From a virus (lineage: Duplodnaviria > Caudoviricetes): DNA of 64,000 nt. A program made the translations under genes and the position numbers. The notes below the pieces were generated by a model. That model did not search any database and was not told where the DNA came from. It saw only the letters and a list, made by a program, of their open reading frames with translations. How positions within the stretch are numbered: the first letter of the stretch is position 1; each line of letters begins with the position of its first letter. The DNA is taken from IMG/VR virus record IMGVR_UViG_3300037454_000974, positions 1,688 to 65,687 of that record; one strand, 5' to 3'. This document shows, piece by piece, positions 19,843 to 63,558 of the stretch.

Positions 19843-19856
19843 GTATATTTGAATAT

Positions 19857-42191: not shown

Positions 42192-42227
42192 AATTGAATT
42201 ATTGTTTTCGGAGATACACTAACAGAT

Positions 42228-48615: not shown

Positions 48616-48654
48616 TTTGGTGGAGTCAGGTATCCTCTTATTTTAGGGAATATA
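48616..48654 (+). repeat. 39-bp element #1 (single)
   Basis: tttggtggagtcaggtatcctct-tattttag-ggaatata. Confidence 0.95.
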
Positions 48655-48810
48655 AACATCCAATTTTCACCGTTTTCCGCCGAAAAATGCAAAAAATGAA
48701 AGATTTGTAATTAACTGATTATCGATATATTATAATGTTAAAATCTGTGAAAATTCGGATAAAACCAACAGATTTCGTATGATTTTTCTGATAAAAAAGT
48801 GGGCGAAAGG

Positions 48811-49059
48811 CTTGGCTGAGCCAGATGTTCTGTTATTTTAGGGAATATAAGCTGTCCGGGAAGCGTGTCGTCCACATCCTGTGGCCGCCAGCGACAGCAG
48901 AGTTCCGTGCAGCAATACAGTCGTCGATGGTATATATTCTCTAAAATAATCTTCTCTTCGACTTGGGCAAGGATTCGTTCAAAAAAATTTCATTAAGGGT
49001 AATATTTTCTTGCGACAAGATTTGGTTGAGTCAAGCCTTCTACTATTTTAGAGAATATA
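48811..49059. repeat. 39-bp elements #2(+,48811-48849), #3(-,48933-48971), #4(+,49021-49059)
   Basis: Convergent pair around an 83-nt GC-rich insert, then a divergent copy. Confidence 0.95.
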
Positions 49060-49206
49060 TTACGCCGTCGTCATCCTCCTCTACGGCACTCTTGTAACTC
49101 GGAATCGGTTAAGACTTTTTAACAAAACTTTTTATCATAAGATTTGTTGGATTAAAATATAATGTTTATATTTGTCATAGTAATAACAATTAAAATTAAT
49201 TGAATT

Positions 49207-49350
49207 ATGAAAGGTTTTGTAATAGCATTATGCGCAATACTTTTAGTTAATGCGTTGATGATTGTCTCAATTATTCTTGGCGAGATAGCATATCAATGCT
49301 TAAGATGGATTGGGAGAAAGTTGGCATACTTCTTCTTTGATTCACTTTAG
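49207..49350 (+). CDS. Small hydrophobic protein
   Basis: 47 aa MKGFVIALCAILLVNALMIVSIILG...; own promoter. Confidence 0.5.
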   Translation: MKGFVIALCAILLVNALMIVSIILGEIAYQCLRWIGRKLAYFFFDSL

Positions 49351-49505
49351 TTGCTTGTGCACTTTTTTTTGAATAATAATTTTTCATATTAAAATTGTTT
49401 TATTATTATGTTTTGAAAAAGGCGCGTAGAGATACGTGCCTTTTTTGTTTTTATATATTTTGCCAGGATCGTTCCATTGACTTGAGAGTCTGAAGGCGGG
49501 CTGCC

Positions 49506-49619
49506 TATATTCTCTAAAATAATAAAGCCGCTGTATCCGCCAAATTATTAGAAAGAAATTTTCAAAAAGTTGTTCCAAAATTTGGATGATTGCGGGAAAA
49601 TACTTTTTTAGGGAATATA
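49506..49619. repeat. 39-bp elements #5(-,49506-49544), #6(+,49581-49619), divergent
   Basis: Both match consensus; #6 has TTTTTTAG. Confidence 0.9.
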
Positions 49620-49748
49620 AACGACAGAGACTCGGAGTGGGCACGGGAAGTTCGTGGCTAAAAAAAGTTTGAAGAAAGTCGGCTCAATGTTTGGTTAAAT
49701 CAAGGAAAAACCATATCTTTGTTAACGTAATAATAAACCTATAATGTT

Positions 49749-50135
49749 ATGAACGAGAATAAACTTTTGTACATTGCATCGGAAACCGCAAGTGTTTTTG
49801 GTATTTTGAGTAAGACTGATTCGGAAACACGAAAAGTGTTATTGGCGAAACTTAATGAGTTGCTTGGCAAAGAAAGCAAGTATGATTTCAACATGGATTT
49901 CGTCAATGACGGAATCACGGAAGTTTGCATGGTTGCGTATGACGGTGGGCGCCATCCCGAATATAATTCAACTATGTACAACACCGTCTATGGAGTGTTG
50001 AAGAAAAAGGGTAAATTCTATGTCAACACCGAAGAGGATAGCGAATATCCAATGAAGTATTTGACAACGGCAGAGGTTTACGGCGTGGTTATGGCAATGA
50101 TTGCCGATATGCAGCTTAGAGCTGAGCAAGACTAA
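49749..50135 (+). CDS. Hypothetical early protein
   Basis: 128 aa between promoter and terminator. Confidence 0.7.
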   Translation: MNENKLLYIASETASVFGILSKTDSETRKVLLAKLNELLGKESKYDFNMDFVNDGITEVCMVAYDGGRHPEYNSTMYNTVYGVLKKKGKFYVNTEEDSEYPMKYLTTAEVYGVVMAMIADMQLRAEQD

Positions 50136-50209
50136 AGTCTTTTCCATATCTTTGTGAAGTGCCTACCCAATTGGGTGGGCATTTTTTTTTGAAAAAAGTG
50201 TTGAGAACA

Positions 50210-50455
50210 TTTGGTAGAGTCAGCGGCTGTATTATTTTAGGGAATATCTGTCATCCGGAGGCAGCCTCTCCTTCCTCATTTAGTAATATAACTTATTGAA
50301 AAATAGCGAGTTAGACAGAAGCGAGGACGACGCCTTCGTCAAGGAGATGTTCGTGAATCGAATGATGTTTCTGAAAGAACGAGGAGTTGTGTGGAGACAC
50401 CCGTCGGTGAAGGCCATATATTCTCTAAAATAATAACTCTTCTGGCTTGAGCAAA
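50210..50455. repeat. 39-bp elements #7(+,50210-50248), #8(-,50417-50455), convergent
   Basis: 168-nt insert, GC-rich next to each element. Confidence 0.95.
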
Positions 50456-50548
50456 TTTCTTGCGATATTTTTTGAAAAAATATTAGTCGAAATATTTCGT
50501 GGAATCAAAATAAGTCCGTATATTTGTATACGTAAAAACAACATCGTT

Positions 50549-50764
50549 ATGAATAAGTGGAAAGTTACATTTTTGATACGCGGTAAGGATAACATTTCGG
50601 TGAATGTCAATAGTAACAATGAGTTGTTTGCTCGGCAGAACGCGATACGGAAATTGCTGATGCAGTACTCTCATCTTGGGTTGCAAAGTGGCGAATATCA
50701 AATAGTGTCGGCAAAGTTGATTTCAAAAGAGAGTACTTTCGGAAAGTATAAGATTTATACATAA
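50549..50764 (+). CDS. Hypothetical early protein
   Basis: MNKWKVTF..., TATATTTG box 50519-50526. Confidence 0.6.
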   Translation: MNKWKVTFLIRGKDNISVNVNSNNELFARQNAIRKLLMQYSHLGLQSGEYQIVSAKLISKESTFGKYKIYT

Positions 50765-50871
50765 CATTATAGGGACATAAAGATGTGGACTTGAAAGAGG
50801 TGCGTTGCGAAACGCGCCTTTTTTGTTATCCGTAGTTGAGGTTGAGTGGAGATATTCCTGAGGATACAGAT

Positions 50872-50999
50872 TATATTCTCTAAAATAGCAGGAAGTCTGG
50901 CTTGGCAAAATTTTTGGGTATAAAAATCGTACGTTTGTAATGAAAAAAGTTTGGTTGAGATTTGGTGGAGTCGATGGAAGTATTATTTTAGAGAATATA
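50872..50999. repeat. 39-bp elements #9(-,50872-50910), #10(+,50961-50999), divergent
   Basis: Consensus matches. Confidence 0.95.
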
Positions 51000-51127
51000 C
51001 GCCGTCAATGGACAGGTGCTGTATCGCAATTGTCTTGGCTAAAAAAACTTTGAAAAAAGTTGCTGATTTGTTTGGTAGTTTAATAGGGAATCATTATCTT
51101 TACGAAGTAATTAAAGATAGAAAGACT

Positions 51128-51298
51128 ATGGCAAAGTATTCGTATTTCATTTTAGCGAGTGAGAACGAGGGGAGCGAGCAAATCAATGATTATTGCACAG
51201 CATTCTCCGCGTTTCAAGTGAACAAAAGTCTTGGAGTTTCATCAACCCTTTATGGAGTAGATGCACAAGGCGAGCAGTCGGTAATTTTCTCATATTAA
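51128..51298 (+). CDS. Small protein, paralog of 61968-62126
   Basis: MAKY...STLYGVDAQGEQSVIF. Confidence 0.65.
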   Translation: MAKYSYFILASENEGSEQINDYCTAFSAFQVNKSLGVSSTLYGVDAQGEQSVIFSY

Positions 51299-51310
51299 AA
51301 CAATAGAATT

Positions 51311-51529
51311 ATGGAAAAGAAACATTGGGAAATTGCATTAGGCAGAACGTGGCAGAACAACAAGTCCATAGATGTAGTCTGCACTGATGAAGAGTTGAAA
51401 ATCATTTGTAACGCATTGGTGGATTATGAGGAAAAAATGGGTAGGACACCAACGTCTTGCGTAGCATTCTTGAATGGTGGTGCGTCACCTTATAGACAGC
51501 CTGATTATGTATATTGTGATTGTATGTGA
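51311..51529 (+). CDS. Hypothetical early protein
   Basis: 72 aa ORF. Confidence 0.55.
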   Translation: MEKKHWEIALGRTWQNNKSIDVVCTDEELKIICNALVDYEEKMGRTPTSCVAFLNGGASPYRQPDYVYCDCM

Positions 51530-51531
51530 TT

Positions 51532-51693
51532 ATGACTGACAAGGAAGTAAATCAAATCATCGCTGATGTCTTGGAGTTGGCAGATGCGGAAAAGCAGGAA
51601 TATGTTAAGCAGGACTTGGTGCTGTTCGCACGACAGCAGGTGTTACTTGGGAATACAAGTGTCGATAGTATAGTTAGCCATTTCTTTGGATAG
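51532..51693 (+). CDS. Small hypothetical protein
   Basis: 53 aa MTDKEVNQII... Confidence 0.5.
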   Translation: MTDKEVNQIIADVLELADAEKQEYVKQDLVLFARQQVLLGNTSVDSIVSHFFG

Positions 51694-51762
51694 TTATACT
51701 CAAACGAGTACCGATAACGGGTGACTTTTTTTAAGGTTGCCCGTTATTTTTTTGCCCGAACA

Positions 51763-51801
51763 TTTGGTGGAGTCGGCGATGATGTTATTTTAGGGAATAT
51801 A
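51763..51801 (+). repeat. 39-bp element #11 (single)
   Basis: tttggtggagtcggcgatgatgt-tattttag-ggaatata. Confidence 0.95.
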
Positions 51802-51942
51802 TTACACAGTAAACATCCGGTTGAACGAACAGTCCTGTTATTGTTGCGATCCTGGCAAAAAAATAATTTGAAAAAAGTTACAGATATATTTGGCGGTTTA
51901 AATTATAATATGTACCTTTGAGCATAAATCAAAAACAAAAAT

Positions 51943-52173
51943 ATGACAAAGACACGTATCGCAGCAGTCAAACAATTAGAACGAATCCGTAGGGGTTTGG
52001 AAAAAAGATGCTCAATGAATAGATATGGAGATTTGATAACTCCAAATGAAATCAAAATGCGTTATGAGAGCGCGTGCAACGCATTTGTTAGAATGTTCGG
52101 AGAGTTGCCAACGCTGAGAGAAACAGCATTGGCTTGTTATCCTACAAGTATGTTTGTTAAAAAACTTAATTGA
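51943..52173 (+). CDS. Hypothetical early protein
   Basis: 76 aa after promoter. Confidence 0.6.
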   Translation: MTKTRIAAVKQLERIRRGLEKRCSMNRYGDLITPNEIKMRYESACNAFVRMFGELPTLRETALACYPTSMFVKKLN

Positions 52174-52174
52174 T

Positions 52175-52603
52175 ATGGCAAAGTATGTATTAGACAATTC
52201 TGATGTTGAAGAAATTATCGGTACGATAGTTGAGTTGAAACGTACTTCATTACCGAGTGGCACCTGTCCGTATGCCGCGTTTGGTGACGGACACAAGTGC
52301 ATAGCAAAAGGGTGCGATGTTCACCAAGAACAATTTTGGGCGAACTACAAAAAAGAGTGGAAAGACTTTTTTAACGAGCGCAAGGAGAAAAAGAATAGCA
52401 AGCGTATCTATGTGATGAACGCGGATATGTTCGAGGAAAAGTACATTCAAGATATGACTGATGCGGAAATCAAAGAACTCTGCGAAAAAGACGAGTGCTG
52501 CGAAGAGCACAACGTTTACGATAGCATAGAGGAACTTTCCGCTTATTGGAATAGTGACGAGATTGATTCGTGCAATACCTATATGCGCATCATTGAAGAT
52601 TAA
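52175..52603 (+). CDS. Hypothetical early protein
   Basis: MAKYVLD...; CPYAAF...C...C cluster. Confidence 0.6.
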   Translation: MAKYVLDNSDVEEIIGTIVELKRTSLPSGTCPYAAFGDGHKCIAKGCDVHQEQFWANYKKEWKDFFNERKEKKNSKRIYVMNADMFEEKYIQDMTDAEIKELCEKDECCEEHNVYDSIEELSAYWNSDEIDSCNTYMRIIED

Positions 52604-52701
52604 CTGACACGGCTCCGAGATTGAAATGCCTACTCCGATTGGGGTGGGCATTTTTCGTATCAGAACCTGATGTCCACCACTGATGATGGTGAAGGCGAGC
52701 A

Positions 52702-52828
52702 TATATTCTCTAAAATAGCAGGATACTTGGCTTCACCAAATTTCCTCTGATGTTTTTTATGATTTTCGTATAAAAAAGTAGAACAAGAATTTGGCTGAGC
52801 CAGAACTTCGTTTATTTTAGGGAATATA
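52702..52828. repeat. 39-bp elements #12(-,52702-52740), #13(+,52790-52828), divergent
   Basis: Consensus matches. Confidence 0.95.
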
Positions 52829-53066
52829 CGAGCTTCACTGCAGTGATGAGATTCCTCACAGCGACAGCAAAATCCTTTGTGTTAAAGAAGTGTTAAAAGC
52901 AGAGATTCCGTGAAAGGTTTGAAAGAAAGCGCGGTATAACTATATAGAGAACGAAATTAAATTGGAGTTCATAAAAATTTTCCAAAAAAGTTGGTAAAAC
53001 GTTTGGTGGATTCACAGAAAACCCCTATCTTTGTCTTGAAGTTAAAAGCAAAAAGAAACAATAACT

Positions 53067-53504
53067 ATGATTAAAGACATTACAATTCCGCACCCTTGCA
53101 GTCCGTGCGAGTCGCATAGAGTAATAAATCTCGGCACCGTTAGTCGCGTGGAAATAACGTGCGGTGGTGGTATGGGTGGCTTACATTGGTACGTGTATGG
53201 CACGTTTGACGAAAAACCCCAAATTGGTAAAATGGCTTATCTTACCGATGAAATAAGCGGTGAGCAGATAACTATCAATCCGAACTACATTGTTACTATC
53301 AAAGAGAAACAATTAGTAAAAGTGGAGTCTGATGTTACGCCACACACCAACTATAACGGAAAGACTTGCAAAAAGCACATTAAGATTCAATACTATTGGT
53401 TTGACTTAATGGACAATATTACCGCAGGCACGAAATACGATGGTACCGCGTCTGATAAAATTAAAAACAATTTCATTTTGGCAGAGGACAAAATCACTAA
53501 ATAA
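53067..53504 (+). CDS. Hypothetical early protein
   Basis: 145 aa after promoter. Confidence 0.65.
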   Translation: MIKDITIPHPCSPCESHRVINLGTVSRVEITCGGGMGGLHWYVYGTFDEKPQIGKMAYLTDEISGEQITINPNYIVTIKEKQLVKVESDVTPHTNYNGKTCKKHIKIQYYWFDLMDNITAGTKYDGTASDKIKNNFILAEDKITK

Positions 53505-53551
53505 AATGGAAAGAAAAGACAACAAAGTACAAACCACTAAAACTAAAAGCA

Positions 53552-53812
53552 ATGAGTAAGAAGTTTTGGGCAGTAGTAGGCACGGAAGAGAATATGTACG
53601 AGCCGCAGGTAATGGAGTTCGGTAACAAGCGTGATGCGGAGAAGTATTGCGATGAGTTTGAAACCGAGTGTGAAGAGCAGGGCTACGATTCCTACATAGC
53701 AGGAGTAGCAGAGAGCGAGCAGGAACGTGACGAATTGGAGCGCGAGGTTCAGCAGTACCGCAGGGACACAATTTTGGGGAACTTTGGCGAGGACGTAGGT
53801 GAGAACGGCTGA
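53552..53812 (+). CDS. Acidic hypothetical early protein
   Basis: 86 aa, followed by terminator. Confidence 0.6.
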   Translation: MSKKFWAVVGTEENMYEPQVMEFGNKRDAEKYCDEFETECEEQGYDSYIAGVAESEQERDELEREVQQYRRDTILGNFGEDVGENG

Positions 53813-53907
53813 TGCCCAAGTGCCAAGAACAGATAGGCTATCCGAGAGGGTAGCCTTTTTTGTTTTCCGTGAGCAGGTGTGATACCCATCAACAGAAGGC
53901 GGCTGCC

Positions 53908-54023
53908 TATATTCTCTAAAATAATAGGAAGTCTGACTCAGCCAAGAGATTGGGTATCTTTTTTTAAAAAAAGTCAATGAAGAATTTGGTGGAGCCAAGG
54001 GAAACATTATTTTAGAGAATATA
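53908..54023. repeat. 39-bp elements #14(-,53908-53946), #15(+,53985-54023), divergent
   Basis: Consensus matches. Confidence 0.95.
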
Positions 54024-54157
54024 ATATAGCCCGTCGTCCTGATGAGCGTCAGCGTGGCTGTATAAAAAATATGTTTTTGAAATTAAGATTTTTTAATAAA
54101 GATAATTTGGATAACTGAATAAAAGTTCCGAACTTTACAACGTAACGAAAAAAAGAA

Positions 54158-54322
54158 ATGGTTATGAAGAATTTTTGTTATGTTTTAATAAAGGACAAAG
54201 CCCCGTGTCGTCAGAGTTTCGAAGAATACGAAGACGCGGTGCAGGCATTCAATGATAACAAAAAGGAAAATCCGTCATTGTTTCGCGAATATTATGAGGG
54301 TGGTTCAATTCAAATAATGTAA
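54158..54322 (+). CDS. Small hypothetical protein
   Basis: 54 aa MVMKNFCYVL... Confidence 0.5.
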   Translation: MVMKNFCYVLIKDKAPCRQSFEEYEDAVQAFNDNKKENPSLFREYYEGGSIQIM

Positions 54323-54326
54323 CATT

Positions 54327-54545
54327 ATGGCAAAGATTTATAGGATTGAAATTTGGTGCAGTGATGATAGTTGCACAGAGTTTTGGTTTGACAAACCGCT
54401 TTCTGATTTTTACACTGATAAAAAGGTAGCAGAAAACGAGTTAAAGAAGTATGACGGGCTTAACAGTGATGAACTTGCTTCAAAGTGCGATGTTTTATAT
54501 GTTGGCATCAATAAGCCCAATATTGTTGAATATGATTTATTATAA
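54327..54545 (+). CDS. Hypothetical early protein
   Basis: 72 aa ORF. Confidence 0.55.
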   Translation: MAKIYRIEIWCSDDSCTEFWFDKPLSDFYTDKKVAENELKKYDGLNSDELASKCDVLYVGINKPNIVEYDLL

Positions 54546-54548
54546 ATT

Positions 54549-54830
54549 ATGAAAACAAGAGAGTTTTTTGATTGGTTTCTTGAAAGAGTAAATGATTATG
54601 ATTTACTTCATACGATAGTTGTGCCCGATGAACCTGAGCAAACCGAAAATTGGTGGTGGGATAACGTGGGTAGTTTACCGCCTTCGCCAATACCTGCAGG
54701 TGAATATTTAATGGCGGTTCCCAATGAAGGCTATAATGCTCTAATATCTGATTTGTGCAGTCATTTCAATGCTGATGTTGAAATAGAAAGCGGTGACGGA
54801 TATGTTTATCTTTATAAGATTGAAAGTTAA
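54549..54830 (+). CDS. Hypothetical early protein
   Basis: 93 aa ORF. Confidence 0.55.
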   Translation: MKTREFFDWFLERVNDYDLLHTIVVPDEPEQTENWWWDNVGSLPPSPIPAGEYLMAVPNEGYNALISDLCSHFNADVEIESGDGYVYLYKIES

Positions 54831-54899
54831 AAAACCTTAAACGTTTGGTAGACTCAATCGAGTATATTATCTTTGTGGCAAATATAACACGAAAGCGAT

Positions 54900-55751
54900 A
54901 TGAAAATAATTGTAACACGAGAGTCAAGGTACACTGAGCGTACACCTGAGATTGAGATGTTTTTGCGTGAAGCACGCAGGTTCACACCCCATAGCATAGC
55001 CGAGCAGAAGGACTTGTGTATGAAGGCAAAGACAGGTGACAAGAAGGCGCAGGATGAACTTATCAATAGCAACCTCTTGTTCATTTTCTCCGTTTGCCAA
55101 AAGTATGCCAAGGGCAATGATGTACTTGATTTGATAGGCGTTGCGACAATTGGTGTCATCAATGCGATTCGTTGTTATGATATTAACCAAGGTGTATCTT
55201 TCCTTTCGTATGCCGTGCGTGCAATGCAGGATGAGATATTGCAGGTTATCAATAACAATACCCTTATAGTAAATAAGGCGGAATATAAACTGCGTCCCAA
55301 GATGTTAAAGTTACGCGATGCGTTCTTTCAGAGTGCCGAGCGTTATCCCACAGAGGGAGAAATGGTAGCATTACTTGAAGCCGAGGGTATGGACTCAAAC
55401 GAGTACCAAGTAATGCCGATGTCTTTTACATCATTCTCTGATGTCGTTGGCGATGACGATGCAACCATAGAAGAGTGCGGACAAATAGCAGTTGCTACTG
55501 CGACAACCAATGACGGAGAAACCACAATCCAAAGTTCTGATAATAAGATTCAGATTGAACGTTTGCTTGATAAATTACCGCCAATAGAAAGGCGTATTAT
55601 TGAAGGGTTGTTTGGTATTAACGGGCCAGAAGAACCGATTGACGAAATAGCAGAGAAGTTGGGTTTCACAACCGAGCGTGTGCGGCAGTTGAAAGCAAAT
55701 GCAATTGCTAAGATGCATGTTATGGCTAAAAGAGCGAAACTTGTTATATAG
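54900..55751 (+). CDS. Sigma70-family RNA polymerase sigma factor (phage copy 2, in the early cassette region)
   Basis: AQDELINSNLLFIFSV, DLIGVATIGVINAIRCYD...SFLSYAV (region 2); ERYPTEGEM (region 3); IDEIAEKLGFTTERVRQL (region 4). Confidence 0.88.
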   Translation: MKIIVTRESRYTERTPEIEMFLREARRFTPHSIAEQKDLCMKAKTGDKKAQDELINSNLLFIFSVCQKYAKGNDVLDLIGVATIGVINAIRCYDINQGVSFLSYAVRAMQDEILQVINNNTLIVNKAEYKLRPKMLKLRDAFFQSAERYPTEGEMVALLEAEGMDSNEYQVMPMSFTSFSDVVGDDDATIEECGQIAVATATTNDGETTIQSSDNKIQIERLLDKLPPIERRIIEGLFGINGPEEPIDEIAEKLGFTTERVRQLKANAIAKMHVMAKRAKLVI

Positions 55752-55859
55752 GTTGATGTTAATATTGATTATAGGTAAGAAAGAGGCGCGTTGTGAAACG
55801 TGCCTTTTTTGTTTGTCCGTAGTTGATGCCCACGCCGACTTCTGAGTCGTCCGGATGTT

Positions 55860-55898
55860 TATATTCCCTAAAATAACAGAACAGTTGGATTGCCCAAA
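55860..55898 (-). repeat. 39-bp element #16 (single)
   Basis: RC tttgggcaatccaactgttctgt-tattttag-ggaatata. Confidence 0.93.
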
Positions 55899-55994
55899 TT
55901 TTTTGATAGAAAATTTATCAAAAAAAGTCACTTTTTTATTTGGTGGTTTCAAATGAAAGCGTTATCTTTGTCATAGAATTAAGAAAGAAAAGAA

Positions 55995-56423
55995 ATGTAT
56001 CGCGCAGAAACAAACTACGGAGAGATTATCAAACACGCTTATAACTGCATTTCGCGGTTTGGGGGCGTTCTTATGAGTTTTCCAAAATCGGCTGATTCGT
56101 ATTTCCGTGTTGGCATACCCTATACGATTTGGGCACCATCAAATATGGCTATGTACGTATGGGGCATTAGGTACGACAGGATTGTAATCCACGTTGGCAA
56201 GAAAAACGGCAACGTAATTGAAGACATTAGTGGCGTTGGTAGTTTTGAAATGCCGTTAAAGGATTTAAGCAACGATTATTGTTTCCAACTTTGGTGTACT
56301 TACATTAGTACCATTAAAAGAGATTTGACAACTCACGGTTGGAATAGTTTTGCAGGACTTTTTACTGAAAAATTTGATTCGTATTATATTGACGTTACTA
56401 AACAAAACTATTTAAAGGATTAA
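55995..56423 (+). CDS. Hypothetical early protein
   Basis: 142 aa after promoter. Confidence 0.6.
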   Translation: MYRAETNYGEIIKHAYNCISRFGGVLMSFPKSADSYFRVGIPYTIWAPSNMAMYVWGIRYDRIVIHVGKKNGNVIEDISGVGSFEMPLKDLSNDYCFQLWCTYISTIKRDLTTHGWNSFAGLFTEKFDSYYIDVTKQNYLKD

Positions 56424-56427
56424 AGAA

Positions 56428-56628
56428 ATGGCAAACGAGAACAATTATCAAAAGTCAGTTGCAGGACACCGCCTGCATTACTTTTTCAGCGAAGATGCTG
56501 AAGGCTACGAGGTTTACAATGAGTTGGACGATTCCCTTGAGGCAGTGATTCCGTATAACGCGATTCCCCTGCTTGAGCATTGCTCCGATGATGACATTCT
56601 TTCTGCGATAGACAGATACGCAGTGTGA
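56428..56628 (+). CDS. Hypothetical early protein
   Basis: 66 aa, followed by terminator. Confidence 0.55.
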   Translation: MANENNYQKSVAGHRLHYFFSEDAEGYEVYNELDDSLEAVIPYNAIPLLEHCSDDDILSAIDRYAV

Positions 56629-56702
56629 CTTTCATTCTTTTACTTTTTTGGCACTCACCCTCACGGGTGGGTGCTTTTTTTTTAAAAAAAGTCAGCCGAA
56701 GA

Positions 56703-56949
56703 TTTGGTTGAGTCAGATCGCTGATTATTTTAGGGAATATATCACCTGGGAGAGTCGTCCTCCTCAACGCTTATGTTCAGAGTTAAGTTATTGATAATGT
56801 GTATTATGGGCAGCCGCAGCGGCCGGGTGATGACAGACGTCAGCGGGCTGAACCAAGATGCGATGGTGGTGAACAGGAGATACAGTCGGAACCTGTCGAT
56901 GGCGGCGGATCTTATTCCCTAAAATAACATCATCATTGGCTTCGCCAAA
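56703..56949. repeat. 39-bp elements #17(+,56703-56741), #18(-,56911-56949), convergent
   Basis: 169-nt insert. Confidence 0.95.
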
Positions 56950-57046
56950 TTTTTAGCAATGTTTTTTTATATCATTTTTCTCCTTTTTTATTTGGTGGAG
57001 TAAGAGAAAAGTCGTATATTTGCATAGAGATTAAAAAAGAAAAGGT

Positions 57047-57178
57047 ATGAAAGATATGTTAAGAAACACCCACAAAGCAATGGCTGATTACTACCGCCAA
57101 TATATAAATGGTGATGCCTACATTCCATTGCAGGATTTACCGCGTTACGAAAGAGCGTTTAAAAAAATCTATAAATAA
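57047..57178 (+). CDS. Small hypothetical protein
   Basis: 43 aa after promoter 56991-57022. Confidence 0.5.
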   Translation: MKDMLRNTHKAMADYYRQYINGDAYIPLQDLPRYERAFKKIYK

Positions 57179-57298
57179 AAAAGGATATGGGAAAGAAAAG
57201 TTTAGAGACAATGGTTGATGAATCAATGAACAAAGTTGCAAAATAATTTGGCGAAGTCAAATTAAAGTGTTATCTTTGTAGTATAAAGGAAAAAGGAA

Positions 57299-57703
57299 AT
57301 GGAAAAGTACAAACCCCTAACAAAAATCGAGGATATAGATTTATATATCATCGAGGAAGAGAACGGAAAGAAAACGGTTCGCCCCCTTGGTTACGGTTGG
57401 AGTGATGCCGTTGGTGACAAAGAAAATCCCACAATTTTTGCTTTTGTTGACATGATATGTGACAGGATTCCTATTGAGGAATTTGTCGAGAATATCAAGC
57501 CCGAAAAGAGTGCGGACTACGTTAACAACCTCTATGAGGGAGCGCGTCAGTATCAGACAGACTTCGACTCCGAGGAAGAACTATTGCAGTACATCAACAC
57601 CTATTTCAACGGCGAATGCGCTGACTACAGACTCGAATATAAAGACATTACAATAGATACCCCCTGCGGTTTCTATGCAGCATCAACATCAAATTTGGAA
57701 TAA
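57299..57703 (+). CDS. Acidic hypothetical early protein
   Basis: 134 aa after promoter. Confidence 0.65.
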   Translation: MEKYKPLTKIEDIDLYIIEEENGKKTVRPLGYGWSDAVGDKENPTIFAFVDMICDRIPIEEFVENIKPEKSADYVNNLYEGARQYQTDFDSEEELLQYINTYFNGECADYRLEYKDITIDTPCGFYAASTSNLE

Positions 57704-57705
57704 CT

Positions 57706-58155
57706 ATGTGCCTCTATCTTAAAGATATAAATTCGCAGATCGCCAGGAATGACATCGTTTGTTATAAGGTGATGTTTCACAACAAGCAGAATAACGTCAT
57801 ATGTACTCCGTTTAGATTAGTTCGCCCTAATGCAGATGTATTGAGTGGTTACGCTAATTTCAGAGCCGAGTTTGCAGAAACACCAGTGGAGAAACTTCTT
57901 GAGCCGATTAGACTCGATTCATGGTTCCATACGTACAATCCCGAATACACAGCACAGGTTGGTGAGGGATTCATACATACCTATATGTTTGCCAGTCATG
58001 CCGTAGAGGACATGGGCACCGAGTGTTTTGCAAGGAAAGATTACCTGCTTTACAGGTGTGTGATTCCAAAAGGTACGGAATATCTTGCAGGTACATATAG
58101 TGCTTATCCCTGCTATGCAAGCCGAGAGATAAGATTTGAAGGCATCGTAGATTAG
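57706..58155 (+). CDS. MCL-family paralog 5
   Basis: MCL...CYKV...TPF...GFIHTY...YRCVIPKGTEYLAG...YASREIRF. Confidence 0.7.
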   Translation: MCLYLKDINSQIARNDIVCYKVMFHNKQNNVICTPFRLVRPNADVLSGYANFRAEFAETPVEKLLEPIRLDSWFHTYNPEYTAQVGEGFIHTYMFASHAVEDMGTECFARKDYLLYRCVIPKGTEYLAGTYSAYPCYASREIRFEGIVD

Positions 58156-58290
58156 TACTCGATTGAGTACCCAAGCATAAACTTCTTTTCCCATTTCTTT
58201 TTCCGGAAGGGGCGCGTCAAAAAGATGCGCCCTTTCTTTTTGGCCGGCCCACGCCTGATGGATGATTTCCATCACGAGGAGGATACAGTT

Positions 58291-58329
58291 TATATTCCCT
58301 AAAATAACAGAACATCCGGTTCAGCCAAG
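58291..58329 (-). repeat. 39-bp element #19 (single)
   Basis: RC cttggctgaaccggatgttctgt-tattttag-ggaatata. Confidence 0.93.
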
Positions 58330-58460
58330 GATCCTTGGTTCTTTTTTCATAATTTCTGTGTTAAAATATTTAACGCAAATCTGTATTATTTTTAACAATT
58401 AAAATTTGGACAAACGGATTAAACCAATTATCTTTGTTATATAATTAAAAAAGGAAAGAT

Positions 58461-59288
58461 ATGAGTTACACAATTCTTTATCGCAGTATGTTTGTAAAAC
58501 TGAGTGACGGCAGGTTTATACCGATGATTGAAGCCGGCTGCAACAACGTATGGGAAGCAGACAATAAACGCAGAGTGCGCCATTGGCAGCAGGCAAACTA
58601 TCTTGTTCCTGGAAAGAATTTTCTTACCGAAGACGAAATCTTGACAGGAGTAGATAACTTTATCAATATAGTAAAGAGCTGCTATGTAGGAAAACCGAAG
58701 CCTGACTATGAGGGCGGAGACGGAGTTATTACTTATACTGACAAAGAGTTGGAAAACAGGTTCGGTTACTTTGAGGGTGTGTCTATCTATGGTAAAAGTA
58801 CCCACGTTACCACCGCGCAACAAATACGCAATTTCTTTAAAAAGGGTATTGAACGCGCCATTTCCATAGATGAAATTATGCTTCGCGTTCACTGGACGAT
58901 TAAATGGCCCGAAACTGAAAATAACTATCCCAAAACTGAGGACGAACTTTTTGCCATAGTTGAAGACGGGGAGAAAAGGGGATTTGACGTTTGGATTGAT
59001 TTTGCCGATCCTTGGAAAATAGAACGTATTTGGGATAGAAAAAAAGCAGAAGCCAAAAAGATACGTACGAAAAAAGAGCATACCAAAGGGTATGTAGTTA
59101 CATGTAACAGCCGTTATCTTGAAAAGGCAACGTCTCGCTATTTTCACCTAAGTAGCTATATCGAATACGCGCACGTCTATCCCTTACGCGCTACCGCAGA
59201 AAAAATGCAAAAACGCATATCACGCCGTTATACTTCAGAACTAATCGAAGTCGAAAAGGTAAACGGAAAGTGGCAACGCACGGCATAA
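58461..59288 (+). CDS. Hypothetical early protein
   Basis: 275 aa between promoter and terminator. Confidence 0.7.
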   Translation: MSYTILYRSMFVKLSDGRFIPMIEAGCNNVWEADNKRRVRHWQQANYLVPGKNFLTEDEILTGVDNFINIVKSCYVGKPKPDYEGGDGVITYTDKELENRFGYFEGVSIYGKSTHVTTAQQIRNFFKKGIERAISIDEIMLRVHWTIKWPETENNYPKTEDELFAIVEDGEKRGFDVWIDFADPWKIERIWDRKKAEAKKIRTKKEHTKGYVVTCNSRYLEKATSRYFHLSSYIEYAHVYPLRATAEKMQKRISRRYTSELIEVEKVNGKWQRTA

Positions 59289-59348
59289 CCAATTCGGAAC
59301 TAAATTAAAGATGCACCTCAAAAAGGTGCATTTTTTTTTGCCTAAAAA

Positions 59349-59520
59349 TTTGGTAGAGTCAGCGGCTGTATTATTTTAGGGAATACAACATCCCAGGACC
59401 AGCTGCAGTTGCTGGAGACCTGGCCGGTCTTTACCGGTAAAAAACTGGCAACTGTAGGAGATAACCTCCTCTGCAGGCAAGTATATTCCCTAAAATAGCA
59501 GGAACATTGGCTTGGCAAAA
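59349..59520. repeat. 39-bp elements #20(+,59349-59387), #21(-,59482-59520), convergent
   Basis: 94-nt insert; #20 identical to #7 over 37 nt. Confidence 0.95.
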
Positions 59521-59642
59521 TAATCAAGGCGAAAAATGCTTGGAAATATTGAAAAAATTTCGGTGTTAAATATTGTGAAAATATTTGGCGGAATCAAATT
59601 AAAGCCTTATCTTTGTTTCAGAAATCAAAAGAGAAAAAGAAT

Positions 59643-60167
59643 ATGGCAAACAGAGAAAGTGATTGGCAGGGGCTTCTCGAAGGATTCAACGAGACATTAG
59701 CACCGCAGGGAAAAGTAATCTTGGTTGAACAGAACGAAGACGAAAGCACATACAGTATCAGCGTTTCAATGCCTAATGGCAAAAAGGAACTTTACGCTGA
59801 CAACTACTACGAGGACGAATTGTGCAATTTGCTCCCTGACGTTTTGGCTTGGGCTTCCAACTATACAGTTTATGAGGAAGATATGACAAAGAGCGAGCCT
59901 GAAAAGGTAATTGTATTGAGCGTAATTGATAGCGATTGTGAGCGTCACCTTTTACGTGCATATAAAGGTAAAAGACTTGCCGACATAGAAGGCAAAGATT
60001 TGATACCGGCCCTTCGTGCCTTCGCTGACGATGATAGTTTTGCCGAAGAGTTTGAAAGCGAAGACGATTTGAAAAAAATGGCAGATATACTTGCCGCAAA
60101 TTCTTTTGCAGAAAGTGACAACGACTATACATACGAACTTCACTATGTTGAACTGACAACTTTTTAA
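59643..60167 (+). CDS. Acidic hypothetical early protein
   Basis: MANRESDW... Confidence 0.65.
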   Translation: MANRESDWQGLLEGFNETLAPQGKVILVEQNEDESTYSISVSMPNGKKELYADNYYEDELCNLLPDVLAWASNYTVYEEDMTKSEPEKVIVLSVIDSDCERHLLRAYKGKRLADIEGKDLIPALRAFADDDSFAEEFESEDDLKKMADILAANSFAESDNDYTYELHYVELTTF

Positions 60168-60171
60168 CACT

Positions 60172-60693
60172 ATGGCAAAATCAGTAAAGCAATCGCAACT
60201 TTTGTTATCAACCGATTGTGACGAAAAGGCTTGGCGCGAATCAGTTGTAGAGTACTGCAATGCAAACGAACTTGAAATACCCGAATTGGGTACTGAAGAA
60301 TCATTTGATTTGACACGTGAAATGATTGACGATGACATTGATTGTTTCTTCGACAACCTTAACTATTCAAAGATTAAGGATGCTGACTTTGTAATCACAG
60401 GTACACTTGGGTTATGGCACGGCATACATGAATTTGATAGTGCCCCCGTTATCAATGGTTTGGAAAAGGCTATCAAACGTTGTCTTGGCAGAGACATTGA
60501 GGACTACGATATTAAACTCAATAAGGGAGTTATCGAGGTATCAGCCCACCACCATGACGGAACGAACCATTTTGAAATCCGTAAATTGGGTAAGCGTGCG
60601 CCACAAATGATTAAGGATAAAGTTGGCACTTTGTTCTATGGCGAAGTCAAAGATTATTGGTTTGAAGAAATTAAAATCAATGACATTTTTTAA
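60172..60693 (+). CDS. Hypothetical early protein
   Basis: 173 aa; GTLGLWHG and SAHHHDGTNHF motifs. Confidence 0.65.
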   Translation: MAKSVKQSQLLLSTDCDEKAWRESVVEYCNANELEIPELGTEESFDLTREMIDDDIDCFFDNLNYSKIKDADFVITGTLGLWHGIHEFDSAPVINGLEKAIKRCLGRDIEDYDIKLNKGVIEVSAHHHDGTNHFEIRKLGKRAPQMIKDKVGTLFYGEVKDYWFEEIKINDIF

Positions 60694-60777
60694 CATTTAA
60701 AATTTGGTAGAATCAAATTAAATCCTTATATTTGTATCGTGAATCAGTTAGTAATATTAACCTTTAAAATTAAGGAA

Positions 60778-61026
60778 ATGGAGAAAAAGACTTTTGTAGT
60801 AACGCACACCGCGAATCACGAAGAGGGTGCAAGTGTAAGAATCGTTGACGTTACCGATGTAGCGGAGTTGGAGCAGTACGGCTTTGAGGTAGGTATTCCC
60901 TATCAGCGCGGTTTGTTCCCCTATAACCGCAATAAGAGCAAGCGCGGTTTCCGTTGCATAGAGGATATGCGTGTCGGCACTATCATCAAGGGAGAGCAGG
61001 GCGCATACCTTCAGAGAATCGCATAA
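60778..61026 (+). CDS. Hypothetical early protein
   Basis: MEKKTFVV... after promoter. Confidence 0.6.
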   Translation: MEKKTFVVTHTANHEEGASVRIVDVTDVAELEQYGFEVGIPYQRGLFPYNRNKSKRGFRCIEDMRVGTIIKGEQGAYLQRIA

Positions 61027-61140
61027 CCCCTAAGCCACCCCGAGCCGTTACACTTACCACCTGCGAGGTGGAGAGGACAGCCACTGACGGCTCATTATAA
61101 GGAGAATCTTCAAGGTTCTCCTTATTTTTTTGCCCTTTCG

Positions 61141-61278
61141 TTTGGCAGAGTCAAAAACTCGATTATTTTAGAGAATATATTCCCGTGGCAGCCCGCTGAG
61201 CAGAACCTGATGTCCATCACGAGCGTCCGCCTTCACCGTTATATTCCCTAAAATAGCAACAGGAACGACTCCACCAAA
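61141..61278. repeat. 39-bp elements #22(+,61141-61179), #23(-,61240-61278), convergent
   Basis: 60-nt insert, 38/60 G+C by hand count. Confidence 0.95.
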
Positions 61279-61386
61279 TTCTTGGCTAAAAATTTTTTCA
61301 AAAAAGACAGAAAAAAGTCGCTAAAATGTTTGGTGGATAAAAATAAAACGCTTATCTTTGTGTAGAAATCAAAAGAGAAAAAGACT

Positions 61387-61752
61387 ATGGATAAGAACAA
61401 GTATCTTGACGCTATTGCGAATACCGCAAGCGAATGCGCAAAAGAGTTAATATCACTCTTGCTTAATAAAAAGGTGTCTAAACTCACCTTTTCTTCAGAA
61501 GACGAAGAAGTTGAATACATTCCTACGATATGTTTCTATGACGACTACGACAACGCCGTACTTTGTGACTTGACGGAACTTGAGTTAGTCACCAACGAGG
61601 GCGAGCCTTATATCAAGATAAGCGGTGAGAACGATTGGGGCGTGAAATCCGGCGCCTATATAGACAAAGACGGCGGTGAATATTATGACCTCGAGCATAG
61701 TCTTGGCAAAATTTACGCTGCCGTTTTAGAGAAACTGGGTTTAGCCGATTAA
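61387..61752 (+). CDS. Acidic hypothetical early protein
   Basis: 121 aa after promoter. Confidence 0.65.
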   Translation: MDKNKYLDAIANTASECAKELISLLLNKKVSKLTFSSEDEEVEYIPTICFYDDYDNAVLCDLTELELVTNEGEPYIKISGENDWGVKSGAYIDKDGGEYYDLEHSLGKIYAAVLEKLGLAD

Positions 61753-61755
61753 ACT

Positions 61756-61956
61756 ATGGGTAGGCTTAAGGGTAGAGTAGTGAACGGCTTTCGCGTAAGC
61801 CGTGAAAAAGTAACCGAAAAAGGTTTGGGCTACGTTGTTTATAAAAATGGTATGCTCAAAGGTTTTATTCCAAGCAGTGAAATCCTTATGGAAGATTGGG
61901 CTTTAACTGACGAGATAATGATGAAATATATTCAGAAATTTTGTTTTACACGTTAA
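61756..61956 (+). CDS. Hypothetical early protein
   Basis: 66 aa ORF. Confidence 0.55.
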   Translation: MGRLKGRVVNGFRVSREKVTEKGLGYVVYKNGMLKGFIPSSEILMEDWALTDEIMMKYIQKFCFTR

Positions 61957-61967
61957 ATTATAAAGAA

Positions 61968-62126
61968 ATGGCAAAGTACGAAAATTTTACATTGGTAACT
62001 GAGACTGACAATCAGGATTATTCCAACTATCAGGATGCGTTTGGCGCATATCAGCGCACCAGAGAGAGCGCCACACTCTACGGCACAGACGAAGAGGGCG
62101 AGCAGTCAGTAATTCTTGCAAAATAA
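61968..62126 (+). CDS. Small protein, paralog of 51128-51298
   Basis: MAKY...ATLYGTDEEGEQSVIL. Confidence 0.65.
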   Translation: MAKYENFTLVTETDNQDYSNYQDAFGAYQRTRESATLYGTDEEGEQSVILAK

Positions 62127-62132
62127 AAGATT

Positions 62133-62648
62133 ATGGGCTATACACATTATTGGGGGTGGAGTACGCATCCCGCCGAAATTAAAGACTTTGAAAATAAGTT
62201 CAAGCGTGCATCGCTCATGGCAAAACAAGCCGTGGTACGAGCAAAGGATGTGCTTATCAAGCGTGGTGAAAATCCTAAGAAACTCGAGTTACATTGTTGT
62301 AATGGAAAAGATGAACCAATTTTCAATGCACAAGAAGTGGCGTTCAATGGCTCAACGAAATATGGGTGTGAAGCAATGTGGATAAACAACAATACCAATA
62401 AAGATGACTATCATTTTTATGATTATCAATTTTGTTGGATTCCGCAGTTTGACAAAGGTAGTTGGTTTACCAAAACAGACAGGCTTCCATACGGATATGC
62501 GGTAGCGGTAACGCTCCGGTGCTTCAAGAAAGTCTTTGGGAAAGATTTTAAATATTGGAGTGACGGACGCATGACGCCAGGTGAAAGACACGGAGAACAT
62601 TATGACGCGGATCCTGATTGGGTAATAGCAAATGAAATTGTAAAATAG
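62133..62648 (+). CDS. Conserved phage protein of unknown function (MGYTHYW family)
   Basis: MGYTHYW...FNG...FTKT.RLPY..AV motif pattern. Confidence 0.65.
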   Translation: MGYTHYWGWSTHPAEIKDFENKFKRASLMAKQAVVRAKDVLIKRGENPKKLELHCCNGKDEPIFNAQEVAFNGSTKYGCEAMWINNNTNKDDYHFYDYQFCWIPQFDKGSWFTKTDRLPYGYAVAVTLRCFKKVFGKDFKYWSDGRMTPGERHGEHYDADPDWVIANEIVK

Positions 62649-62748
62649 TACTCGATTGAGTACCTAAGTTATAAAAAGGACGGATAACCATTAAATGTGG
62701 CTATCCGTTTTTTTGACAAAATAGTATTTAATTATAAAATAGAAAAAA

Positions 62749-63297
62749 ATGAGTTCAAGCGAATATAAAGATTTAATACGTGTTGTTGCCACAATCTTTT
62801 TATTTCTTACATTATTTATTGCCGGCATAACGAACATTAAACATCGCCAAAATGTTGTTATTGGTACCGCAATAGAAATGTATGAAACAAAACTGCGTTG
62901 GTATAGTTATGCTGAATTCATTTATAACGAAAGCAGGAAAAATACCGACATTAATATTCAAGAATATCTTTCGTCAATTAATAATTCAAGGAGATTTTTT
63001 AAGATGCAAATCAATAGTTTGAAGCAAGGTTATGCTGAGGTGGTGCAACCTTTCTATGCCATAGAAAATTATAATCTGCATTGGGTGTTGGAATCTTCAT
63101 CTGATAATCTTAAAACAAAGAAAGACATTAAACATGCTTTGCTTAACATGGAAGAATTAGAAGAACAACTGATACTTCAAATTACCAATTACAACGATAT
63201 TGCCAAAAGATATAATAAGCGAATAAGGTGGAGTATTCTAAATGTGTTCTTGCAACGCCGGCCATATCCATTATTAAATCCCGACTTAAATGAATAA
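62749..63297 (+). CDS. LemA-like membrane-anchored protein
   Basis: N-terminal TM helix; EELEEQL...NYNDIAKRYNKRIR resembles the LemA C-terminal helix. Confidence 0.55.
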   Translation: MSSSEYKDLIRVVATIFLFLTLFIAGITNIKHRQNVVIGTAIEMYETKLRWYSYAEFIYNESRKNTDINIQEYLSSINNSRRFFKMQINSLKQGYAEVVQPFYAIENYNLHWVLESSSDNLKTKKDIKHALLNMEELEEQLILQITNYNDIAKRYNKRIRWSILNVFLQRRPYPLLNPDLNE

Positions 63298-63337
63298 CGG
63301 ATAATCTTCAAGGTTATCCGTTTTTTTTACCTGAAAA

Positions 63338-63376
63338 TTTGGTGAAGCCAGATGTTCGATTATTTTAGGGAATATA
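63338..63376 (+). repeat. 39-bp element #24 (single)
   Basis: tttggtgaagccagatgttcgat-tattttag-ggaatata. Confidence 0.95.
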
Positions 63377-63558
63377 AACACCTGCGATCCGATCCTTCTG
63401 TATAACATTTATTATCCACTTGTATAATTAAATTTTTTAACACTTTTTTATTGAAAATAATTGCCAAAATATTTTGTTGAATGAAAATAATGCCATATCT
63501 TTGTTTCAGTAATAAAAAGAAAAAGGTAGTGACAAATAATTTTTAATAATAAAGACTT

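Follow-up and report, generated by a model that had tools for sequence, protein, structure and literature searches.

Promoter-like repeats at the cassette junctions of a small-gene module in related rumen phages

The DNA analysed here (the window) is 64 kb of a 65.7-kb (65,687-base) phage record from IMG/VR, IMGVR_UViG_3300037454_000974, which is rated by CheckV as 18% complete. Between positions 48616 and 63376 the window carries 24 copies (13 plus, 11 minus) of an oriented repeat, here termed F1, with the sequence TTTGGnGGAGTCA-N10-TATTTTAG(G/A)GAATATA; the conserved stretches before and after N10 are referred to as box A and box B. From its anatomy, its placement between gene cassettes and its recurrence in related phages, F1 is probably a promoter class of the small-gene (early, `host-takeover'-like) module in a clade of approximately 350-kb Bacteroidota rumen myophages, and it would probably be read by a phage sigma factor. 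The conserved regulatory layout appears to be a new variation on phage temporal promoter classes, promoter-early stem-loop (PeSL)-like cassettes and antisense promoters and not a categorically new system, and the term `undescribed phage system' used in a preliminary description of this DNA is therefore too strong.

That description listed 24 oriented copies in the interval and none in the first 48 kb. A search of the window with the box B string TATTTTAGRGAATATA, allowing up to 3 mismatches, returned 31 matches against 5.07 expected. Together with an alignment of the copies, the search bears out both statements: 24 matches with 0-2 mismatches form the array (48639-63376), while the other seven have 2-3 mismatches and are without box A. 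No further F1 copy was found in the whole 65,687-base record outside the array. A form of box B with an additional base at the hyphen printed in the preliminary consensus gave no array; the hyphen only separates. The copies are listed here in order.

48616-48654, plus strand: F1 copy 1, box A-N10-box B
48811-48849, plus strand: F1 copy 2, convergent with copy 3 over an 83-nt GC-rich segment
48933-48971, minus strand: F1 copy 3
49021-49059, plus strand: F1 copy 4, about 85 nt upstream of the F2 at 49143
49506-49544, minus strand: F1 copy 5, aims back at the terminator 49414-49447
49581-49619, plus strand: F1 copy 6, one mismatch in box B; divergent with copy 5; upstream of the F2 at 49690
50210-50248, plus strand: F1 copy 7, right after the terminator 50156-50185; convergent with copy 8 (168 nt)
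50417-50455, minus strand: F1 copy 8
50872-50910, minus strand: F1 copy 9, aims at the terminator 50793-50828
50961-50999, plus strand: F1 copy 10, divergent with copy 9
51763-51801, plus strand: F1 copy 11, after the terminator 51713-51748; upstream of the F2 at 51889
52702-52740, minus strand: F1 copy 12
52790-52828, plus strand: F1 copy 13, divergent with copy 12
53908-53946, minus strand: F1 copy 14, aims at the terminator 53835-53856
53985-54023, plus strand: F1 copy 15, sole good promoter-like site before ORFs 54158-54830 (F2 degenerate there)
55860-55898, minus strand: F1 copy 16, aims at the terminator 55779-55814 behind the sigma gene
56703-56741, plus strand: F1 copy 17, after the terminator 56650-56675; convergent with copy 18 (169 nt)
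56911-56949, minus strand: F1 copy 18, two mismatches in box B
58291-58329, minus strand: F1 copy 19
59349-59387, plus strand: F1 copy 20, after the terminator 59307-59335; convergent with copy 21 (94 nt)
59482-59520, minus strand: F1 copy 21
61141-61179, plus strand: F1 copy 22, after the terminator 61097-61125; convergent with copy 23 (60 nt)
61240-61278, minus strand: F1 copy 23
63338-63376, plus strand: F1 copy 24, after the terminator 63296-63322; upstream of the F2 at 63473

In the 24-copy alignment box A has TTTGG at positions -23 to -19 relative to box B, an invariant A at -15 and G/C at -14/-12. The TTTGG is followed by the invariant A and by G, Y and C, then by 10 variable nucleotides and then by box B, in which 13 of the 16 positions never vary, and the core is 39 nt long in every copy. 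The boxes, the N10 spacer and the fixed length of the preliminary consensus are thus confirmed, but a conserved A/T tract at -41 to -36 shows that the element is longer than 39 nt.

Promoters read by the primary sigma factor of Bacteroidota have the consensus TTTG at -33 and TAnnTTTG at -7, and mutational studies of Bacteroides and Flavobacterium promoters have reportedly shown the TTTG block to be critical. F1 is similar in having TTTG, a spacing within the 19-21 nt range, a T-rich 8-mer that begins with TA and A/T-rich DNA upstream. At -23 to -20 the bases T, T, T and G are found in 20, 24, 24 and 22 of the 24 copies, respectively, and the distance from TTTG to the octamer is 19 nt in every copy. 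The octamer itself is TATTTTAG in 23 copies and TTTTTTAG in the remaining one, with A at position 7 in all 24; it departs from TAnnTTTG in that this A replaces the third T, and it matches at five of the six specified positions. F1 also differs from such promoters in the eight further near-invariant bases that follow the 8-mer and in preceding no open reading frame (ORF). The T-A at box B positions 12-13 is invariant and lies at the distance from the octamer that is usual for a transcription start. The box B equivalents of relatives have C-A where the window has T-A, and a pyrimidine-A is kept in three different box-B types. Regions 4 and 2 of a single sigma factor match the earlier suggestion that two proteins or domains bind at a set distance from each other. 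As a promoter, F1 would comprise an A-tract at about -55, a -33 box of TTTGG with a phage-specific extension, a fixed 19-nt spacing, a -10/-7-like octamer and an invariant stretch closing in the pyrimidine-A of the putative transcription start.

A second repeat family, F2, which is absent from the preliminary description, was found with a repeat finder. It has the form TTTG-N20-TAnnTTTG and is present in 13 plus-strand copies in the array and 16 in the whole window, against 1.7 expected; two further copies are slight variants. Each F2 in the array lies 20-60 nt ahead of the ATG of a small plus-strand ORF. By its sequence F2 is a host-type early promoter that fits the Bacteroidota primary-sigma consensus, and the small genes behind promoters of this type therefore point to a Bacteroidota host. 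Both families carry an upstream A-tract with GT and, in the window phage, an extended -33 box, TTTGGTGGA.TCA. The F2 sites are as follows.

49143-49174, plus strand: F2 before ORF 49207-49350
49690-49721, plus strand: F2 before ORF 49749-50135; RNA contigs of two runs start at 49746/49747
50495-50526, plus strand: F2 variant (TTTC at -33) before ORF 50549-50764
51071-51102, plus strand: F2 variant (TATCTTTA) before an ORF starting at 51129
51889-51920, plus strand: F2 before ORF 51943-52173
53002-53033, plus strand: F2 before ORF 53067-53504
54844-54875, plus strand: F2 before the sigma gene
55939-55970, plus strand: F2 before ORF 55995-56423
56991-57022, plus strand: F2 before ORF 57047-57178
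57247-57278, plus strand: F2 before ORF 57299-57703
58405-58436, plus strand: F2 before ORF 58461-59288
59584-59615, plus strand: F2 before ORF 59643-60167
60703-60734, plus strand: F2 before ORF 60778-61026
61329-61360, plus strand: F2 before ORF 61387-61752
63473-63503, plus strand: F2 before ORF 63559-63723

All credible genes between 49 and 64 kb are on the plus strand, in cassettes that consist of an F2, one to five ORFs and a hairpin terminator. Every F1 sits between a terminator and the next F2, and none lies inside a credible gene. Four layouts are found. In the first, the order is terminator, tail (the GC-rich DNA on the box-B side of F1), minus F1, 36-50 nt, plus F1, tail and F2; in the second it is terminator, plus F1, a shared tail, minus F1 and F2; the third and fourth have a lone plus copy and a lone minus copy, respectively. 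A plus F1 always aims through F2 into the next cassette and a minus F1 always back at the preceding terminator and gene. From a plus F1 to the -33 box of F2 the distance is about 86-112 nt in the window, with one of 189 nt, and 62-106 nt in a complete relative of 356 kb (G001). Seven plus copies abut the hairpin of a terminator; for minus copies the gap back to such a hairpin is 43-58 nt. There is no terminator between the plus-oriented copies and the next gene. A U-tract that could serve in the reverse orientation is present in only a few upstream terminators, and therefore most transcripts from minus copies would run on as antisense RNA.

The statement that all copies are intergenic is correct when judged by the plus-strand genes; some ORFs that are short or on the minus strand, have no homologs and are probably non-genes are touched by a few copies. 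A search for leaderless ORFs at the predicted start found an ATG formed at just two of the 24 copies, the minus copies at 50417 and 52702, where the final A of box B together with TG gives ATG at the predicted transcript start; one of the two opens a 150-codon frame antisense to a real gene. A 49-codon ORF (56773-56922, plus strand) fills the convergent pair 56703-56949 and begins 32 nt past box B. This ORF and the two minus-copy frames are probably due to chance. Upstream of the ORFs at 54158-54830 there is a good F1 and no F2 other than a degenerate one, and to judge from these sites the operon depends on F1.

The start-to-start spacing of F1 copies is 195-2718 nt, with both orientations and with genes between them. 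An interpretation as a CRISPR array or solitary repeat unit was rejected on account of this irregular arrangement, as the preliminary description had also judged. The pair geometry given there is likewise reproduced: five divergent pairs have 36-50 nt between box A ends, and convergent pairs have 60, 83, 94, 168 and 169 nt between box B ends, with one more pair spanning a 47-codon ORF. The partners of divergent pairs share overlapping A-tracts. A hairpin between the arms of a convergent pair was also considered and rejected; the N10 spacers differ between partners, so no long stem can form.

Two sigma-70 family genes are present in the window.

54900-55751, plus strand: array gene for a 283-aa sigma-70 family protein that has regions 2 and 4; behind an F2; candidate reader of box B
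37740-38432, plus strand: second gene of the sigma-70 family, located outside the array; its 230-aa product shares 51% identity with a G001 protein

The 230-aa protein has strong region-2 similarity to RpoD, RpoS and RpoH models. Orthologs of the array sigma were located on other assemblies by protein search; the DNA of three of these contigs was read, and three further ortholog contigs were left out. The orthologs are 73, 52 and 50% identical to the array sigma, and their contigs contain 15-16, 12 and 25-27 F1 copies, respectively, in 8-12 kb, with the sigma gene among them behind an F2. In all three contigs box B is T(A/T)TTTTAGAGAATATA; box A has drifted to GGATTCA, ..TCCGG and TACTTTG. In G001, where the best sigma match is 27% identical, the architecture is the same and box B is a different one (TATATTAAAnnCAAT); the array sigma of G001 is encoded at 161487-162224 of that genome. 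Retention of box B with the sigma orthologs and its change with a distant sigma are expected if region 2 reads box B and region 4 reads TTTGG. The link is a correlation drawn from few, related genomes and is not proof. As for a phage RNA polymerase, PF00623 was not found in the complete G001, and a search with PF00940, made without a positive control, is uninformative.

The layout of F1 and F2 recurs in at least five related rumen phage contigs. The window encodes contractile-tail phage proteins (tail sheath and baseplate hub) together with helicases, an SbcC-like nuclease and a homing endonuclease. A sheath protein search retrieved relatives with 39-61% identity on phage contigs of 335-388 kb (G001-G005), four of them rated complete, and DNA nearly identical to the window is present in bovine gut (rumen) metagenomes and in two metatranscriptomes. 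Because of the size of the sheath relatives and the rumen matches, we take the window to be a fragment of a rumen jumbo myophage genome of about 350 kb.

G001 (sheath 54% identical) has 38 copies of TTTGG..TYCAA, spacer and TATATTAAAnnCAAT in both orientations, each with a GC-rich tail. They occur only within a 37-kb small-gene module at 155-192 kb of the 356-kb genome, and the extended motif is found nowhere outside it; the confinement to one region that had been predicted for relatives is seen in a complete genome. Since F2 is common in G001 outside 155-192 kb as well, F1 marks the small-gene module and not early transcription generally. L297 is a close strain of G001. In G006, a 121-kb fragment, 19 copies of CYTAAAATTTTTATA, 15 nt and TATTTTAGGRCATATA are all located in the first 30 kb in both orientations, interleaved with about 35 F2-type promoters that share the upstream box AAAATTTTTATA. 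Box B is absent from G002-G005, and in the stretches of G004 and G005 that were read no F1-like class was seen, only F2. Two candidate repeats were rejected: TTGAATTAAA in G004 is merely a leader behind F2, and CTTTAGAATAGTCATA in G001 falls inside paralogous coding sequences. G001 also has a paralogous gene family (57977, 58169 and 348406-349039) with an identical 16-nt coding stretch at five places.

A scan of IMG/VR with the box B 16-mer gave single chance matches among the matches listed, one of which (L080) led to G006. The composite F1 pattern gave no more than single matches in IMG/VR and, among the matches listed, no multi-copy locus in metagenome contigs, and IMG/VR held no close relatives by sigma protein.

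In the window phage, G001 and G006 the upstream half of F1 resembles the upstream half of F2 from the same phage, as judged by consensus strings and by cross-scoring with position weight matrices. With the G006 F2 matrix, F1 of G006 scores 22.3 bits and F1 of the window and of G001 about 1 bit. Variation within box B also has a local character. At position 8 the first six minus copies of the window have A and the last five have G. In the related locus L375, 15 of 15 sense copies keep AG at positions 7-8, reading TTTTTTAG.GAATA, and 10 of 10 antisense copies lack the G, reading TTTTTTA[ACT][TA]GAAT, which points to orientation-specific selection or homogenisation. Taken together, the regional choice in the window and the L375 variants indicate local homogenisation, and they possibly reflect different strengths of sense and antisense copies.

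Because the octamer breaks TAnnTTTG in every copy and box B accompanies the sigma orthologs, we infer that F1 is read by host core polymerase carrying a phage sigma. In the scheme that we propose, in which initiation at F1, the identity of the sigma and the roles of the transcripts and GC-rich tails are deduced from sequence, the phage sigma would first be made from a host-type F2 and would then direct the host core polymerase to F1. Plus copies would give extra sense transcripts with longer leaders across the next F2-gene cassette. Minus copies, firing back over the upstream terminator, would give antisense RNA covering the 3' end of the cassette upstream, and convergent pairs would yield transcripts overlapping at their 5' ends or colliding polymerases. 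The net effect would likely be a second-phase re-programming or shut-off of the early cassettes. A narrower proposal, which we offer tentatively and regard as somewhat unlikely, is that F1 is a dedicated shut-off or timing device: the early-module sigma would turn on 20-40 short units bracketing the cassettes, leaders, antisense RNAs or collisions would silence or insulate the cassettes, and the vocabulary shared by the tails would be the signal for some further factor. Such a device would amount to a modular system of antisense control that is carried by promoters and conserved in a clade of rumen jumbo phages.

The available RNA data are assembled contigs from two rumen metatranscriptomes and show neither starts nor strand. 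The deepest contigs in both begin at 60731/60755 and end at 61089/61093, spanning the interval between the F2 at 60703-60734 and the terminator at 61097-61125, and the RNA contigs agree with an active F2. The gene at 60778-61026 (60731-61093) has a depth of 34 and 18 in the two data sets compared with 2-6 elsewhere. The bins 48670-49336 and 52672-53338 have no RNA contig and are uninformative for F1 activity.

Several observations weigh against F1 as a sigma-dependent promoter class. The contigs over 49749-50135, a gene with F1 upstream, start about 20 nt past the F2 start in both runs and do not reach the F1 tail, a weak hint that F1 is not the main promoter in these two RNA samples; the promoter role itself is read from sequence. 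The distance to a credible start codon exceeds 60 nt for every F1, whereas F2 comes that close at 13-15 sites. F1 is absent before all genes outside the early module, both in the window and in the complete G001, unlike an ordinary temporal class. The partners of convergent pairs are just 52-170 nt apart and have no obvious product. Not all relatives have the -33 box extension that F1 and F2 share; TTTG(G) is all that the families have in common in the loci L374 and L375. The 121-kb fragment of G006 has box B and no sigma-70 gene, but it represents 32% of the genome and for that reason cannot be scored for the sigma link. The last point, which concerns sequence shared by the tails, is met with below.

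The presence of box B without a sigma gene in G006 also suits an alternative in which F1 is read by the host primary sigma alone, as immediate-early sites of great strength that recruit or sequester host polymerase, the phage sigma being irrelevant. The host-like TTTG at -33, the 19-nt spacing and the match to TAnnTTTG at five of six specified positions are in its favour, and in another member of the Bacteroidota, Cellulophaga baltica, the polymerase transcribed a T7 A1 promoter template, and the middle promoters of the Bacteroidota phage phi14:2 resemble -35/-10 elements (bioRxiv 10.1101/2020.03.07.982082), the latter being a precedent for the favoured interpretation of F1 as well. We nevertheless regard this alternative as unlikely. 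The A in place of the third T of TTTG occurs in all 24 copies and in all copies of four other contigs; box B stays with the array sigma over 50-73% identity and is a different one at 27% sigma identity; and the RNA contigs begin at F2, not at F1. The preliminary suggestions of polymerase decoys and of sites for pulling in DNA found no support, and pulling is disfavoured because F1 occurs in both orientations.

The GC-rich non-coding DNA on the box-B side, which the preliminary description had noted, is evident in the 40 nt beyond box B: successive 10-nt bins have 58, 54, 53 and 48% GC, compared with 36% for the window. ARAGORN found no tRNA genes behind the repeats, and Rfam gave no tail match at the gathering score, just terminator-like chance matches at E values of up to 5. 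Across the first 50 nt of 24 window and 39 G001 tails, the mean folding z-score against dinucleotide shuffles is about -0.55, with 3 of 63 below -2; the tails fold only slightly better than shuffles, and their interpretation as structured small RNAs was rejected. Their interpretation as antisense guides on the phage's own genes was also rejected, as the only significant matches are other tails. The idea that F1 sites are promoters for a bank of small RNAs hence survives in part: a promoter is favoured by the geometry, the F2-like upstream half and the co-occurrence with the sigma gene, while a small-RNA bank is not demonstrated.

The tails do share sequence. In the combined set, 29 7-mers are found in at least four of 62 tails against 0.8 expected, and 11 7-mers (for example CGCCTTC, GTCGTCC and CCTCCTC) recur in two or more window tails and also in two or more G001 tails, where 0.23 would be expected. 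Reverse-complementing one set leaves the sharing equally strong, which would not be expected of a functional RNA and counts as a further point against the promoter interpretation; the tail vocabulary is therefore not tied to the transcribed strand. In G006 the tails are short and not GC-rich. Nine convergent pairs in L375 have shared tails that all keep to a length of 52-62 nt and can be sorted into paralogous groups. A role in duplex stability or spacing, a site for some other factor and a shared pool spread by recombination among the repeats are all possibilities. If F1 does not initiate transcription, the GC-rich tails become the main puzzle, with a vocabulary that is common to different phages yet not strand-specific.

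This indifference to strand is one of the features that would be explained if F1 were a set of sites for a phage DNA-binding protein (a repressor, an insulator or a nucleoid-type organiser) that does not initiate transcription, with an upstream half inherited from a duplicated F2. Both orientations are equally frequent and F1 is limited to one module; box A is partly dyad-symmetric (TTGGC..GCCAA-like), which suits a dimer, and the -33 boxes of F2 are likewise dyad-like in G001 (TTTGGCCAAA) and G006 (AAAATTTT). We find this account quite improbable, as it leaves the promoter anatomy unexplained: F1 as a whole is strongly asymmetric with the GC-rich tail always on the box-B side, the distance to the -33 box is constant to the single nucleotide, as it would be in a promoter, and three different box-B types all keep pyrimidine-A where a start would be expected. 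The analysis identified no candidate for the binding protein.

The cassettes are shuffled between relatives, and two genes that are adjacent in G001 are 10 kb apart in the window. Contigs from other rumen samples match the window up to 50209, 54108, 58460 and 62529-63085 and then continue into unrelated sequence, so strains differ by whole cassettes; the breakpoint at 50209 is the base just before an F1, and the breakpoints are too few to be assigned to F1. Such rearrangements, one of them bordering the first base of an F1, could be expected if F1 and its tail formed a mobile or recombinogenic unit, either like a miniature inverted-repeat transposable element (MITE) with inverted F1 ends or like a PeSL-type linker for cassette shuffling, for which there is a precedent (PMC2839356, PMC4122927). 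Five short units of 138-247 bp in total do lie between inverted F1 copies, and the tails share segments in both orientations. This explanation is highly improbable, and the first two of the following points also tell against the earlier idea of recombination sites for cassettes: there are no target-site duplications, the flanks sharing A/T runs only; searches with PF00589, PF00239 and PF01797, which were positive in control genomes, found no tyrosine recombinase, serine recombinase or Y1 transposase in the record, in G006 or in the complete G001, in keeping with the earlier remark that none was seen; the best-conserved part of F1 is its inner and not its outer end; the overlap of their A-tracts makes divergent pairs a built-in design and not two independent insertions; and no strand-switching joints were seen in DNA runs. 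Homologous shuffling at F1-type repeats, as with T4 PeSLs, is likely to be a by-product.

Among known systems, the PeSLs of T4-type phages are cassettes of an early promoter together with a stem-loop that serve as sites for modular shuffling (PMC2839356, PMC4122927). The likeness lies in repeated motifs of about 40-100 bp, here of a putative promoter with a terminator, in hyperplastic regions of small orphan ORFs, each its own transcription unit. PeSLs differ in being located directly before the start codon and all pointing gene-wise, which fits F2 and not F1; F1 lies upstream of F2 or points backward, has about 40 nt of GC-rich non-coding DNA behind it and has a -10 box that is off the host consensus. 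Repetitive extragenic palindromes (REP/BIME) and MITEs are also short repeats in both orientations, intergenic behind terminators and often in inverted pairs; F1 differs in being no palindrome, in having no cognate Y1 (RAYT) transposase or target duplications and in its promoter anatomy.

In the Bacillus phage SPO1, the early-encoded sigma gp28 redirects host core polymerase to a new -10/-35 pair, and a host-takeover module of this phage was reportedly described by Stewart et al. in 1998. The likeness extends to a lytic myophage with small early genes behind strong host-type promoters, with terminators and with a sigma among the early genes. The middle promoters of SPO1 differ in mainly serving middle genes elsewhere, whereas F1 is confined to the early module and about half of its copies are antisense. 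Promoters of a later class that act against genes of another class and give antisense RNA are found in the jumbo phage AR9, in which seven late promoters drive antisense transcription (PMC5312081), a precedent for F1 as promoters, and in LUZ7 and LIT1 (PMC9163698). There they are few and scattered (seven in AR9), whereas F1 is present at nearly every cassette junction and in convergent and divergent pairs. No studies of the transcription programmes of Bacteroidota jumbo phages were found in the searched literature.

If the array sigma does read F1, the two would form a clean pair of sigma and promoter that co-varies naturally, one box B being retained at 50-73% identity and another accompanying a distant sigma. 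This pair would help to explain the reading of the -7 element by Bacteroidota-type sigma factors and would be a source of orthogonal expression parts for engineering Bacteroides or Prevotella. The bracketing of early cassettes by sense and antisense promoters, if true, would be among the most systematic uses of antisense promoters by a phage. Whichever interpretation holds, the density of F1 and F2 is a practical marker by which the early module of huge phages that are uncultured can be located.

The left border of the early module is marked by another repeat.

48530-48595, plus strand: G-rich (T)ACGTAGGGG(G) repeats, left border of the early module

These repeats are prone to form G-quadruplexes and lie directly to the left of the first F1, where a leftward gene block meets the rightward early module. 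Similar G-rich repeats are found at the same border in G001 (154960-155060) and G006 (about 200-260), and they may represent an origin, a genome end or a packaging-related site.

Elsewhere in the window, the minus-strand gene at 4160-9064 encodes a 1634-aa protein, the last 140 residues of which resemble an endolysin family; it is likely a tail-associated lysin or a tape-measure fusion. An HNH/homing-endonuclease gene (19818-21545, plus strand) adjoins the sheath gene. Two neighbouring small ORFs at 41928-42506 (plus strand) have near-identical leaders (TTCGGAGATACACT.ACAGAT ahead of the ATG) and are probably a tandem duplication. A third motif, (A)GGTATTTATA, occurs 5-35 nt ahead of the start codons of structural and other non-early genes, the sheath gene included, at window positions 2737, 19268, 24695, 26405, 33929, 40799 and others. 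It has no -33 box, is probably a late promoter class and is possibly read by the second sigma (37740-38432).

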